DNA of 64,000 bases, from NCBI GenBank assembly GCA_964016885.1, contig OZ024742.1:278628001-278692000 (forward strand), in the 5' to 3' direction. A program made the translations under genes and the position numbers. The stretch comes from Eledone cirrhosa. Lineage: Eukaryota. The notes below the pieces were generated by a model. It saw nothing but the letters and a program-made list of their open reading frames with translations, had not been told where the DNA came from and did no database searches. Shown piece by piece: positions 1,115 through 59,802 of this stretch (positions are counted from its first letter, which is position 1; every line of letters starts with the position of its first letter).

Positions 1115-1252
1115 AATCTGGAAGCCGATGATTTCTCCCGAATGAAACATTAGTAGTCCTGTAGAAGCCTTTTCTATATTGAATATTTGTATTCTGCTTT
1201 GTATTGACCACCTTACTTACTGTGGTTACCTCCGTTTAAACCCGGGATAAAT
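1115..1252 (+). mobile_element. Short PLE-like 3' fragment (family E) with degenerate HHR, between (TA)n tracts
   Basis: CCGATGA-T-TTC-TCCC-GAA-T-GAAAC-ATTAGTA-GTC; homologous to the long arm of 17265-17449. Confidence 0.6.
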
Positions 1253-1393
1253 GTATATATATATATATATATATATATATATATGTATATATATGTGTGT
1301 GTGTGTGTATGTTTGTGTGTGTGTGTATGTTTGTGTGTGTGTGTGTGTGTGTAATATATATATATATATATATATATATATATATATATATAT

Positions 1394-1577
1394 AACGAAG
1401 GAAATGTGGTAAGGAACCAGGTGGACCATAACGCACCAAAGTACTCAATACTTAGGGTAGTAGAGTGGGTAATAGGAACGAGTAGGAACCCGACGACTGA
1501 GCTCAAGCCGTTTCGACGGCTAATTCATTAGCCGTCGAAACGGCTTGAGCTCAGCCGTCGGGGTCCTACTCGTTCAT
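1394..1577. mobile_element. Fold-back PLE-like 3' fragment (family D) in (TA)n
   Basis: Inverted arms centred at about 1525; arm carries the HHR 3' half GAAAC-GGCT-TGAGCTC-AGCC-GTC; left arm about 80 nt longer; relatives at 15683, 29406 and 59610. Confidence 0.75.
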
Positions 1578-1699
1578 ATATATATATATATATATATATA
1601 TATATATATATATATATATATATATATATATATACATATATATATAAATATATTATACACTCACACACACATATATATATATATATATAAATTTATATC

Positions 1700-2620
1700 T
1701 GTATAAAGTTAAATGTCTCTCATAGGTAAAAATCTCAATGAAAGGATAAGCTATATTAATACACTATCCACTCAGGGAAGTATAAAAATATATTAAAGTA
1801 AAGCAAAAATTCCTTCTCGGTGGATATAAGCCAAATCGCCTAAAAGATGTCGGCTTTAACTCATATAATACTACGACCAAAGTTTCTGAAATTCAAGATA
1901 CAAAATCAGGAATTCTAAGACATTGGAAAAATCAATATTGGCATAATTAAATATCCTTCTTCCGGAGGTGAATTCTTCTTAGAAATAAGGGGACCGGTTG
2001 AAAATATATCATATATACCATTTCGTTGCTAGACCATATGGTGAATAAGGTTTAGTATCGCTGAATTACTGTATGTATTATATTCTAACTAAAGGAGCAA
2101 GTTGAATATATATCATACATACCAAGCTGTTAGTAGATCGCATGATGAAATAACGTGTTCCATCACTGAAATTACTGTTTGAATATTTCTTACTTAAAGT
2201 GTTGGTACAATTGACACCGGAAACAGCGATATAAGCCGATTTGATGAGAATTTGGCTGAAGTTTAATGTATTTTAATTCTTTTGTGAGTGGATAATTTAT
2301 TTATATATCATATCCTTTTATTGAGATGCTTATGTATCAGAGGCAGTTAACATTATAGAGTTATAAATTAATATTGACTGTTCCACCATTGTTGAGCAGA
2401 TATAGACGGTTTTGTTAACTGTTCCTTCACTATTCGGCGAAGAAACTTAAATTCTTCCAATATTGGATATTCCAATATCTTGGAATTCCTGATGTTGAAT
2501 CTTGTGATCCAGAAATGATAGTGGAGGTATTATATAAGTTAAAGCCGACTTTATTTAGTCAATATAGGTTATATACCCCACCAAAATGAGATTTTGGCTT
2601 AAGTTTAATATATTATATTA
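1700..2620. mobile_element. Old diverged fold-back PLE-like insertion
   Basis: About 1785-1972 and 2426-2615 are diverged inverted repeats; both arms keep a decayed CTGAT..-stem II-GAAA..(GTC) motif facing outward. Confidence 0.55.
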
Positions 2621-2858
2621 CCGGGAAACCTCACCCACATACTTATGTATCTGTGTGTGTATCTCGTTACTATGTTGTCCCAACTTCCTTATGGTTGTGT
2701 TAAACAGCCGGGTGCTGAGAGTTTTTTCTAGCAAATTTGGTACTCACTAAATGTCCGGCTTTTGCTTCTGTGACCGGTGTATAATGTGATATTTTTTACC
2801 CCACCCCGAGAATTATTCATATGGAACGGTTCAGTCAAGAAATAATCCACTATTATGA

Positions 2859-2954
2859 GGGGTCTCTTGATAAGCCTTCAGTCTCACAGCAATGGTGCAC
2901 CTTTATGTTGCATGCTTGCTGCAATTCAGTTGGTGAAACTTTAGTCGAGACTCT
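2859..2954 (+). ncRNA. Type I hammerhead ribozyme, U3-A8 core variant, long stem II
   Basis: GGGGTCTC/GAGACTCT stem I; TTGATAA core at 2867; stem II GCC..CAGCAA..TTGCTG..GGT (61 nt); GAAAC-TTTA-GTC. Confidence 0.75.
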
Positions 2955-3456
2955 GAAGAAAGAAAGGTATACATTTGCATATATATATATATATATATAT
3001 ATATATATATATATATATATATTAAGTACTCGATGAAATGTCACATTTGTAGGGCAATTTCTAGGTTAGATCTTTTAGGACGATCATTACATAGATACAA
3101 CTTTCATAGGACTAAAATAATTGACACTACAAAGTAAACTATAGCATCAACAAACCTAACTACATTACCATACATTTAAAACACTTAAATATAGTAATAT
3201 TACCGATATTTCTGTGGGTCAAAACACACAGACCTGCTTAAATCTTATAATTTCATGATTGTAGCATCTCAGTTCATAAATATACCTTAAGTCACAAATG
3301 CTGATCTGCTGGCTTTAATTGGCAGGACAAATCTTTACACACACACACTATATATATATGAACACAGACACACACACATATATATGTATACATAAATACA
3401 TACATATATATTTAAATATATATATATATATATATATATATATATATATATATATA

Positions 3457-3903
3457 TATTATTCAAAATATTAACAAATGAAGATATTCACAAAATCAAA
3501 ATATATGCTTTATTATATATATTTTTCGAAGGTACTGTAATGTTTTTTTCCAGTACATCCTCGTCAGATGAAATATATGATTTGATATATGACATACCTC
3601 TACTGTCTTGATATTTCAATTCCAACTGGAATTGAAATATCAAGACAGTAGAGGTATGTCATATATCAAATCATATTTAATCTGACGAGGACGTACTGTA
3701 AAAAAAAACATTACAGTACCTTCGAAAAATATATATAATAAAGCATATATTTTGATTTTCTGAATATCTTCATTTGTTAATATTTTGAATAATATGATAA
3801 CTCCCGGAATATATCCTTGTTGAGTGCTTTTAATCTATTGTAAAACTGTTTTAATCCATTGCAAAACATTGAGTAATCAATGAACAATATTAATCTTTGG
3901 TTA
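3457..3903. mobile_element. Fold-back PLE-like 3' fragment with HHR-like motif in both arms
   Basis: Near-perfect 168-bp arms around a 2-nt centre (3625-3626); CTGACGA(3682)..GTACTGTAA/TTACAGTAC..GAAA(3724); right arm about 108 nt longer; (TA)n on both sides. Confidence 0.8.
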
Positions 3904-57058: not shown

Positions 57059-57163
57059 TATATATATATATATATATATATATATATATATACACAGTCA
57101 CTATGTATTTTTGAAAATAGCATATATTTTCACTAGCTCTGACAGTTTGGCAGGTAAACAGTT

Positions 57164-57211
57164 AGCTGTACTGATGAAGGGTGATACCCAGAAATATTAG
57201 TGTCTGCAGTT
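57164..57211 (+). ncRNA. Type I hammerhead, canonical core, in the 57093-57346 insert
   Basis: AGCTGTA-CTGATGA-A-GGGT-GAT-ACCC-A-GAAA-TA-TTAG-TG-TC-TGCAGTT. Confidence 0.85.
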
Positions 57212-58227
57212 CTGTTCACATTTCAACACAAGAGCAAGAATGAAGGGTTCACTCTACTGACATGGCTTTAAAATTGAAGCTTGTTTGTATAATTGCAAAC
57301 GAATCGAATGTTATTATCAATATTCAAAGAACTCAGATTACATTTATATATATGTATATATATATATATATGTGTATATATATATATATATATATATATA
57401 TATATATATATATATATATATATATATATATATATATATATATATATATGGAGTAGTCATTACAATACAACTGGAGGAAAAATAATAGTACCGCTGATGA
57501 TGGCACAGGTGTGTGATGAAAGAACTTTGATAGACTATATATATATATATATTAACCTTTGGGAAATCAATGATAAACATTGATTGCCTGTTGAATTAAC
57601 TATAAGGATAGATATAAAATATACAGAAGCGAAAAACAGTCCAAACCAAACAGTGAATGTGTTTTATTAGAATTCCTGGCAATATTATAACAACATGACC
57701 CTCCCCAAATATAACAATACACACACACACACAGACACACACACACACACACACACACACACACACACACACACACACACACACACACACACACACACAC
57801 ACACACACACACACACACATATATATATATATATATAGTAGAAATTTGGAGTAAATATCCAATAGTGACCTGTCCAGGTATTTAGGTTTCGTTCGGTTAT
57901 TTACCCCAACTCATACAGTCTGTCATATATTATATTTATGAATGGTTGGAGTGACTAACCCAACGAAACGTAAGTACCTATACAGGCCACTGTTGTAACT
58001 ATATATATACATGTATTGAGCAGTCTCGGTTACACATACTTTATTTATACATATAACTTTATAATACACTTCGACTGCTGGTGCACTTCTTAATATCTTT
58101 ATCAACTACTAATACTGCCACTAATTATATGCAACTTAGTATGACCATTTCAGAATAATGTTAAGAATGAATGTGTATATATACTCATCAAATATATATT
58201 TTGTTGTGGTTGATTGGCTTATATATA

Positions 58228-58272
58228 CGTCATCTGATGAGGGTACAATTAGATCCGAAAATCCATTAAAGT
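58228..58272 (+). ncRNA. Decayed hammerhead-like motif (relative at about 59376-59436)
   Basis: CTGATGA-GGGT..ATCC-GAAA-ATCCAT-TA; stem I weak. Confidence 0.45.
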
Positions 58273-58615
58273 TGTTTATCATTTTTTCAATTTAAATCGA
58301 AATTCTTATTTTCTGGCATGTTTACATGCCTACATACTAGATATGTGTATATATTTATACACATTGGTACAGTCTTGGTTACACACTATGTATTTATACA
58401 CACACACACACACACACACACACACACACACACACACACACACACACACACACACAAATATATATATATATATATATATATATAATTATAAGTTTGAAGA
58501 ATAGCCAGACCAAATTTATCCAATTCTTTTCTTCTTAGTCCGTAGAAATTAACTAGATAGATAATCAATTAAACGGAACTAAGTTTAAAGAAAAAAATAT
58601 ATATTTATATATATA

Positions 58616-59365
58616 CTAGCAGAATGGCCCGGCGTTGCTTGGGCTTCTAAATATAGATTGGCATGTTTATCCCTCCTTTCTGAAACAGTGCAGAGAAGTA
58701 CGGAATACCTCAGCCTGGGGATGGTGTCTACATTTTGTGCTTATGAAAAAAAATTCGTCGTAGATTACCAGAGGTTTAACTTAATTGGGTGCCTGAGAGT
58801 AAAATGTTCAACCCACGAAAGCCAAGACGATAGGGTTAAGTAAAAAGGCATTCGACAAACCGAACATGTATTTGTTGTGCTATGGTACAATGACAGTTAC
58901 AGAGCAGTAAGTGCAGTGGTGGAGAGCATGAAGGAATTTAGTTGGATACTTTTAAGTTACAAAATTCTACCCAATCTGATATAGACCGAACTGTTATATC
59001 GGATGCCGAAAGCTTCGGAGTTACTATTGCGGTCACCATCAACAATTTTAAGGGATGTACGTTTATGTAGGGATAATATAGTCTATAATGAGAGGTAACT
59101 CTTTCAAAATACTAAAGAGTTGTCTCTCTTAAACATTGTAACAAAATTGCCGACAAAATGGGCTTACAGTTTTAGTGAAAAAAACGCTTTTAACAACAGA
59201 AAATTTAAACATTAAAGCTGCAGTTAATATCTTTAGACTGCAAGGAATATATAAATGCAAGTTTGATGTCAATCGGAATAGAAATGTGGATTTGTATAGA
59301 CTTTGCAAAAATTAGGACACACACACACACACAGACAATTTCAGTTTTATATATATATGTATAGA
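58616..59365 (-). mobile_element. Non-autonomous Helitron
   Basis: On - strand: 5' A|TCTATAC..TATAAAACTGAAATTGTCTGTGTG, 3' hairpin CCCAAGCAACGCCGGG followed by CTAG|T. Confidence 0.75.
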
Positions 59366-59609
59366 TGATATACACGTCATCTGATGGAGGTGGGGTGGGT
59401 ATTTTGGTCTAATTAGATCCGAAAGCGATTAAAGTTGTTTATCGTTTGTTTCAATTGAGATGGAAAGACGTAGTTTCTGGCATGTTTACATATTTACATG
59501 CATACGTATTAGAAAAGTGTATACATTTATACAGGTTAGGGTGGTCTCGCTTAGACACTCAGTATTTATACCGATATAATTTTTAAAAAACAACAACATA
59601 TATATATAT

Positions 59610-59802
59610 AACAAATAAAGTGTGGCAAGGAACCAGGTGAACCATAATTACTCGATACTTAAGGTAGTAGAGTGGGTAATAAGAAAAGAGTCAGGACCCG
59701 GTCTGCTGAGCTTCAGCCGTTTCGACAGATAGATACGACAGCCAGGTCGGATCTAACTGTCGAACAGCCGGATCTCAGCCATCGGCGTCCTGACTCTTTT
59801 CA
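59610..59802. mobile_element. Diverged fold-back family D fragment
   Basis: GAAAAGAGTCAGGAC..GTCCTGACTCTTTTC arms; left extension about 70 nt. Confidence 0.65.

Follow-up and report, generated by a model that had tools for sequence, protein, structure and literature searches.

Head-to-head insertions with two fixed ends in putative Penelope-like elements of Eledone cirrhosa

In a stretch of 64,000 nucleotides from the genome of Eledone cirrhosa (assembly GCA_964016885.1, contig OZ024742.1, forward-strand positions 278,628,001 to 278,692,000; hereafter the window), putative Penelope-like elements (PLEs) occur as insertions of a particular build: two inverted copies of one element end, joined at their centre and pointing outward, whose outer ends lie at two fixed positions of the element, nearly always one of each. 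These insertions are a very clean case of a known PLE architecture that sharpens its mechanism, the two arms probably being two separately primed cDNAs. That both cDNAs were copied on one RNA is a more tentative proposal.

The window has a GC content of 32% and many (TA)n runs, in a host genome of 3.0 Gb. Families of events are named after their approximate start positions in the window (1394, 3457 and so on), PLE-A being the family found at 17660-21426 and 33684-39050. Labels such as L092 or L128 designate loci sampled elsewhere in the genome, and other copies were also taken from raw reads. We call short end and long end the outer ends of the short and the long arm, and tail the stretch between the short site and the long site; coordinates of the 1394 family take L092:7644 as +1.

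Two fixed sites and their pairing

Thirteen window events listed in a preliminary description were checked by masked self-BLAST and per-event alignment. Two inverted, outward-pointing copies, as described there, were recovered in 12 of them, head-to-head and with unequal outer ends, the tails measuring about 48-170 nt (Table 1). The remaining one, event 1700, is too decayed: no TA run was found at its right end, no hammerhead, and no relative in ~1.5 Mb of sampled loci. That the insertions sit nearly always in (TA)n stands for most of them, and in 143 events of the 1394 family, partly anchor-selected, the median pure TA run measures 29 and 32 nt on the two sides; besides the right end of event 1700, the exception is the long end of the 51870 event, which adjoins ATAT only.

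The short-arm ends are fixed and not scattered, as had been claimed. Among 321 TA-abutting ends of the 1394 family, 112 lie at +61 and 184 at +141 (with the 3 nt of the shared TAT counted, and duplicates and anchor-selected loci included). Searched genome-wide with exact patterns, the 1394 family showed 22,291 long ends; the short end, sought for one subfamily, was matched 9,170 times, and reversed controls gave 0. The raw data were Illumina short reads from restriction-site-associated DNA (RAD). Three runs under one species label hold (TA)n loose ends at both 1394-family sites (2,771-3,176 and 8,198-11,517 reads), strand-switch joints occur in raw reads at L092:7640-7650, and contigs from a run with a different organism label carry the same two ends; as far as these short reads go, the ends are not an assembly or chimera artefact, a doubt raised from the start. 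Loose ends of PLE-A appear in two runs at 35345 and 35460. A drop in read depth near L092:7651 was not used: many molecules end there at AATT, likely the RAD enzyme site. Neither in the 1394 family nor in PLE-A did minimum-free-energy folding reveal a structure common to both sites. A minor third end, ~21 nt past the short site, is present in three young 1394-subfamily copies (L341, L342, L344).

The long arm had been supposed to start at the RNA 3′ end, an idea that we had to abandon. In tandem copies (L092, L128 and the window copy of PLE-A beyond 35455), the sequence continues from the long site straight into the 5′ leader and the open reading frame (ORF); the long site is therefore not the RNA 3′ end, and both sites are internal. 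Just past the short site, the long arm reads TA or TAT in most window events, the 17265 family showing a match of at most 1 nt.

As for pairing, 143 of the 147 resolved two-armed events of the 1394 family are long+short, three are long+long and one is short+short; 92 further ends were unpaired or unresolved, and events with arms longer than 300-700 nt stayed outside this set. Genome-wide, patterns with a centre of 85-115 nt (self-complementary patterns counted once) amount to 10,543 long+short, 74 short+short and at most 79 long+long. The last figure is an over-count: among 46 checked, 20 truly have both ends at the long site by TA, six run on into the ORF, and the other 20 end elsewhere. The one-of-each rule holds at about 99%, with about 1% of symmetric pairs, and single-armed copies are common, so that the “always” of the earlier statement on one shorter arm does not hold. 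In PLE-A, an opposite arm was found in 21 of 30 short-end loci (19 of the 30 extended to 9 kb), and all 21 start from the long site. Among 30 short-end loci of the 56630 family, 16 show the long end at +169/170, five of these being, it seems, copies of a single duplicated event, and there is one short+short pair; in the 5697 family a long arm accompanies ~11 of 30 short ends, and two or three loci look short+short. The five identically built 56630-family events are those of L207-L211 (C1:211.9-213.0 Mb), probably one insertion within a local duplication. Single short-site arms also occur in the window, at 57100-57346 (41283 family, hammerhead core 57171) and 15684-15739 (1394 lineage).

Origin of the two arms

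Arm reach and junctions were counted in 112 events of the 1394 family, once 31 similarity-selected ones had been removed from the 143 long+short events. In 52 of them it is the short arm that extends further 5′ and in 45 the long arm, with 15 in which both are equal, while eight long arms stop inside the tail and leave no template for the short arm. A young subfamily gives 11 short-further, nine long-further and five within 1 nt. In PLE-A either arm can lead by kilobases, the short arm exceeding the long one by 1-2.6 kb in L368, L369 and L383. The short-site arm of L092 is a multi-kilobase tandem, and its inverted long-site arm is not a mirror of it at the centre. A-run stutters at the central end were seen in four long-arm and four short-arm events. 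The fact that either arm may run further 5′ by kilobases argues against the fold-back of a first cDNA and in favour of two target-primed cDNAs. Together with the pairing data, arm reach agrees with the preliminary description, which had two separately primed arms, one of them at a fixed internal site, joined centrally.

Taking as observed the two fixed sites, their internal position, the one-of-each rule, the variable centres and the ability of either arm to be the longer, we infer the rest of the mechanism. A (TA)n tract is probably nicked on both strands by the PLE enzyme; each strand would then serve as primer for a separate cDNA, at one or other of the two sites, before the cDNAs are joined. 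One cut strand would prime first-strand cDNA at the short site and the other at the long site, where a pairing of 2-5 nt may help, both RNA sites beginning with TA(T). Both cDNAs would likely come from one RNA held by a complex with two active sites, mini-palindromes would be run-off copies to the transcription start, and host end-joining would join the cDNA ends, mostly blunt or with added bases. The self-complementarity of (TA)n, invoked earlier as the cause, is not needed: at the ATT sites where the anole PLE extends the two strands, RNA and DNA share no homology (PMC11167929).

Central ends at -3..+8 account for 74 long and 83 short arms of 112 each, and only three and five lie further upstream, although the cluster fraction is inflated because arms longer than 300-700 nt were unresolved. 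In the 1394 family, TATTTAAA lies 29 nt upstream of this cluster; of the 59 arms of the 17265 family, 40 have their end in a 12-nt window that opens 29 nt past TATAAA, and of the 27 of the 3457 family, 16 do so in one that opens at the A of TCACT, 32 nt after TATATA. Three families thus have a TATA-like box 29-32 nt upstream of their cluster, and the arms of mini-palindromes likely end at the RNA 5′ end by run-off. At L128 (reverse complement, 6837-7993), a 1394-family copy starts at the long site and extends as far as the presumed 5′ end of the RNA; it then picks up again mid-ORF, reaches the 5′ end a second time and is followed by an inverted short arm, a structure consistent with a template jump after run-off.

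The 112 centres comprise 49 with inserted bases, 27 blunt joins, 20 that share 1 nt and 16 that share two or more. Mean overlap is 1.21 nt against 0.65 by permutation (62 clean joins), and uncertainty about the source variant (TTTAG/TTCAG) could conceal 3-4 nt of homology at one recurrent centre. Microhomology joining, as first suggested, draws modest support from this excess, but most joins are blunt or carry inserted bases.

More tentatively, a PLE dimer might hold one transcript by two fixed 5′-leader handles, nick (TA)n and copy the same RNA twice, displacing the first cDNA; this would be obligatory, and the general origin of the PLE inverted repeat with its one-sided tail. If true, run-off to the capped start seeded the genome with more than 10,000 hairpin-forming mini-palindromes from one family. 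Single-nucleotide polymorphisms (SNPs) are shared between the arms of asymmetric pairs in a manner hinting at one RNA primed twice. By alignment scoring, the arms differ at subfamily-diagnostic sites in two of 84 asymmetric pairs (at single sites) and in 15 of 65 symmetric ones (Fisher p=1e-4), the latter being nine of 46 short+short and six of 19 true long+long pairs. Differences at two or more diagnostic sites occur in no asymmetric and six symmetric pairs (p=0.006); an earlier, stricter regular-expression scoring, in which 42 of 145 events received no score, had yielded p=0.12. Private mutations are mostly confined to one arm, which indicates that arm concordance does not result from later homogenisation, and the mismatch between arms across 1394 subfamilies is 0.7-3.3%. 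The SNP contrast between asymmetric and symmetric pairs favours one RNA primed twice, with asymmetric pairs drawn for the most part from the first 55 Mb of C1.

The strongest competitor, rather unlikely in our judgement, places the two primers on two RNA molecules in an asymmetric dimer, the RNAs usually coming from the same source locus. Overlapping arms would then arise without strand displacement, the anole protein is predicted to dimerise (PMC11167929), and some concordance is expected anyway, as subfamily ages differ. However, asymmetric pairs hardly ever combine two subfamilies of similarly young age (0.9% and 0.7%), whereas 15 of 65 symmetric pairs are mixed. Moreover, several individual long arms halt right at the short site (window 21378, L162, L196, L130, L132), as may happen when they are blocked on the same RNA.

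Self-priming, in which one cDNA or an antisense template folds at the centre, copies back and stops at an internal TA, we consider improbable. It accounts for the shared arm SNPs and the palindromic centres, and is the reading of head-to-head PLE junctions given, probably for an antisense template, in the relevant part of PMC3846280. But it predicts that the long arm always reaches further 5′, against the 52 of 112 events led by the short arm and the eight long arms that end in the tail, and it predicts paired centres, against 76 of 112 that are blunt or have inserted bases; the kilobase short-arm excess in PLE-A and the A-stutters on both arms also speak against it. Events where neither arm holds the template of the other contradict fold-back of the long arm, the one of the two versions on which these counts bear.

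A ready-made palindromic non-autonomous element copied as a unit, similar to a miniature inverted-repeat transposable element, would suit a set of over 10,000 copies that measure ~190 bp and share both ends; it is very improbable, and refuted for most copies, given that centres vary from copy to copy while the ends are fixed and that the same ends bound multi-kilobase ORF-bearing insertions, even if a few recurrent centres (e.g., +1/+7) could be secondary copies. Palindromes beside TA runs are hard to assemble, yet an assembly or chimeric-read artefact is practically negligible, and refuted for the ends, given that raw reads of three runs, and contigs of a differently labelled one, have fixed ends specific to the family, that strand-switch joints occur, and that arms have diverged from each other by up to 16%.

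Several points weigh against the account of two cDNAs primed on one RNA and run off to its start. On a single RNA, overlapping arms would require strand displacement, and symmetric pairs make an imperfect stand-in for events on two RNAs, since some may have arisen afterwards through conversion or loss of a tail. Later asymmetric deletion of palindrome centres could mimic a further-reaching short arm in small events; this class persists in the young subfamily, yet deletion is possible case by case. The 5697 cluster (16 of 49) has no TATA box at -30, and a clear 5′ cluster is missing from PLE-A, 24500 and 56630. An extra C derived from a cap is no more than suggested by the counts (11 C, 5 T and 4 G, with p=0.21 for C vs T). 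No signal of target-site duplication (TSD) rises above shuffled data, with four of 143 events against a shuffled mean of 0.91 and maximum of 4 (200 shuffles). Finally, the evidence for these families comes from DNA sequence.

The elements and their surroundings

Two ORFs, one of the 1394 family at L092 (a 707-aa stretch) and that of PLE-A, each appear to combine a PLE-type reverse transcriptase (RT) with a C-terminal GIY-YIG endonuclease (EN), as in EN+ PLEs. This identity rests on motifs and their order because Pfam gave no RT or GIY-YIG match for the 3+3 proteins tried. The L092 ORF holds RWR, DKT, YRDD and YIG, and that of PLE-A, ~39% identical to it, RWK, DKT, YRDD and YVG; neither has GxKF/Y. 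Linker and flank motifs are CNCPDRSIC, CNLC and CKH in one ORF and CNCTYPDNC, CKLC and CRH in the other. The sole CxxC of each ORF is near the C-terminus, none is inside the GIY-YIG core, and there is no CCHH. Among the homologous matches listed, DKT occurs in 112 of 120, RW[KR] in 114 of 120 and GxK[FY] in one of 120. The Hydra clade is described as inserting into (TA)n and having DKT, RWK, CxCx5C and CxxC/CxH, without GxKF/Y (PMC8557442, section 11), and by these published motif features both ORFs would belong to it. Nematis, our first guess, was dropped once the Hydra motifs matched.

The events had been assigned to eight or more unrelated families, but several of these proved to be related: those at 1394, 29406 and 59610 are one lineage (77-86% nucleotide identity), and the ORFs of PLE-A and 24500 are ~38-49% identical to the 1394-family protein. 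Ends of 3457, 5697 and 56630 sit downstream of similar ORF ends in some loci; for 17265, 41283, 51870 and 1700 no ORF link was found in the sampled loci, the lone 17265 link being a neighbouring PLE-A. Pseudo-long terminal repeats (pLTRs) or partial tandems with a tail are present at window 34675-39050, L092+L181, L128, L365 and L382. The pLTR of PLE-A holds (TA)n tracts (window 34406-34517, 38090-38215 and 18493-18612), and so the element carries its own preferred target. A decayed further Hydra-type ORF, ~41% identical to the L092 protein, lies at 43353-44542; a hammerhead-like match at 44467, antisense inside it, is probably due to chance.

The elements had been described as bearing hammerheads, and this stands in part. 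Type I cores are predicted in the PLE-A, 3457, 5697, 17265, 51870 and 41283 families, and the 1394 family has a putative type I variant with a three-way-junction fold and a U3-A8 core, its predicted cut lying 17 nt before the short site; no convincing hammerhead was found for 24500, 56630 and 1700. A U3-A8 core variant, and minimal hammerheads paired on opposite strands 100-700 bp apart, are treated in part of PMC4209133. Rfam gave no hammerhead among the 150 matches listed of 191, which were microRNA and small RNA models far below gathering scores. From the hammerhead GAAA to the short end there are 36-66 nt in five families, in line with the few tens of nucleotides reported earlier, but PLE-A has 119 nt there and the 41283 family ~150 nt. 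At the predicted cut (+41..+43), three positions hold 12 arm ends against 69 in the other 46 positions of 12-60, a modest excess confounded by microhomology.

Table 1. Positions of events and their parts in the window
Feature	Position	Strand or arms	Details
Single-armed copy related to 17265 family (83%)	1115..1253	+	TA on both sides; exception to two-arm pattern
1394-family mini-palindrome	1395..1575	long arm left (antisense), short arm right	tail 80-81 nt; blunt centre; only 3′ half of 1394-family hammerhead present
Decayed inverted repeat (event 1700)	1689..2620	arms 1787-1959 / 2439-2614	75-78%; not confirmed as PLE event
3457-family pair	3460..3901	short end 3460, long end 3901	tail 110; predicted hammerhead core 3682 (+) plus mirror
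5697-family pair	5696..7676	128-bp short arm left, ~1.8-kb long arm right	tail 140; predicted hammerheads 5802 (-), 7429 (+)
17265-family mini-palindrome	17266..17448		tail 69; predicted hammerhead core 17387 (+)
PLE-A	17660..21426	3.7-kb long arm (-), 57-bp inverted short arm 21370-21426	tail 113; junction is the 21378 of the preliminary description; long arm halts at short site of upstream pLTR copy; arms abut, twin-priming-like geometry
PLE-A putative RT-EN coding region	18883..21199	-	Hydra-clade motifs DKT, CxCx5C, CxxC, CxH
24500-family palindrome, 4.7 kb	24499..29192	centre near 26912	tail 136; putative RT-EN fragments in both arms
1394-lineage mini-palindrome	29407..29605		tail 80
PLE-A	33684..39050	+	inverted short arm 33684-34674, then pLTR-tail-ORF-pLTR-tail 34675-39050; tail 112-113
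PLE-A predicted hammerhead cores (33684..39050)	33836, 35191, 38786	-, +, +
PLE-A tail, internal position	35343..35455	+	short site after 35342 (then TAT), long site after 35455 (then TATAT)
41283-family pair	41284..~41510		tail ~48 by eye, family modal tail 31-37 nt; short arm with internal deletion
51870-family pair	51863..52095	short end left in TA, long end right	tail ~62 by eye; predicted hammerhead core 51933 (-)
56630-family pair	56630..57056		tail 170
1394-lineage mini-palindrome	59610..59801		tail 73

Other repeats share the window. Repeats of a further family occupy 8568-8669, 16184-16308 and 5129-5266, with cores that resemble hammerheads at 8603 and 16205, and a common dispersed family of short repeats, with some inverted pairs, is found at 5311-5460, 13601-14151, 23439-23858, 33198-33398, 52836-53032 and 60937-61192. 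At 52198-52471, a 102-bp inverted repeat (96%) flanks a TA run, the reverse of the arrangement described above. There are also a 465-bp direct duplication (55548-56012 / 56139-56603, 99.8%) and a tandem repeat of ~790 bp at 62106-64000.

Comparison with known elements

Inverted copies, tails on one side only, a preference for (TA)n and a pair of internal start sites have all been described in print. Inverted 5′-truncated copies, a 30-40 bp tail at one end and a microsatellite bias are among the PLE features set out in part of PMC8557442, and the pertinent part of PMC3846280 gives a one-sided tail with a 9-bp TSD in Adineta, and TATA plus TCACT in the pLTR. The purified anole PLE, a predicted dimer, cuts and extends both strands at ATT sites, with two internal RT starts matching the tail (PMC11167929). 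Where PMC8557442 deals with the tandem and inverted structures of PLEs and their microsatellite preference, their origin is left as an open question. A literature search at the level of titles and abstracts, with key older reviews and supplements outside it, found no one-of-each rule, fold-back test, SNP contrast or start-site run-off. One family alone contributes more than 10,000 events here. Its arms follow the one-of-each rule at 99%, its junctions contradict fold-back and its SNP contrast points to a single RNA; together, these results link the two start sites seen in vitro (PMC11167929) with a specific coupled mechanism.

The closest unit is that of the Pen2a_Av type of EN+ PLE, in the descriptions of PMC3846280 and Fig. 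2 of PMC8557442. There too, a head-to-head inverted copy comes with a tail at one end, possibly either one, and the pLTR has TATA plus a motif resembling an initiator (Inr). However, the tails here are mostly 60-170 nt, compared with 30-40 in those descriptions, and come one per pair at ~99%, whereas there the tail is optional; the self-priming explanation offered for that unit is contradicted by the junctions found here. With the Hydra clade of PMC8557442, section 11, the Eledone elements share RWK/RWR, DKT, CxCx5C, CxxC and CxH around the catalytic E and N, hammerheads and (TA)n. They differ in their very high copy number (22,291 exact long ends in one family), units longer than 3 kb and long pLTRs, and in the end-pairing rule, none being stated in that section's description. 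In vitro, Poseidon PAc of Anolis (PMC11167929) likewise has two internal RT starts bounding the tail, cuts and extends both target strands, and is predicted to dimerise, but its starts show neither homology to the target nor a strand difference. In the Eledone families the sites begin with TA(T), which matches the target, and their use is coupled, one of each.

The L1 element primes at its poly(A) and at a variable internal site, producing arms that do not overlap, in a minority of its insertions. Its twin priming (Ostertag and Kazazian 2001), as far as the relevant part of PMC2246262 summarises it, is alike in that both sides of the break prime on RNA and an inversion results, and the PLE-A event at 17660-21426 has that abutting geometry. 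In contrast, the sites in the Eledone families are fixed and internal, the arms mostly overlap as palindromes, and two arms are the common outcome. The pattern works like twin priming but its product differs, the second site being fixed and the arms overlapping.

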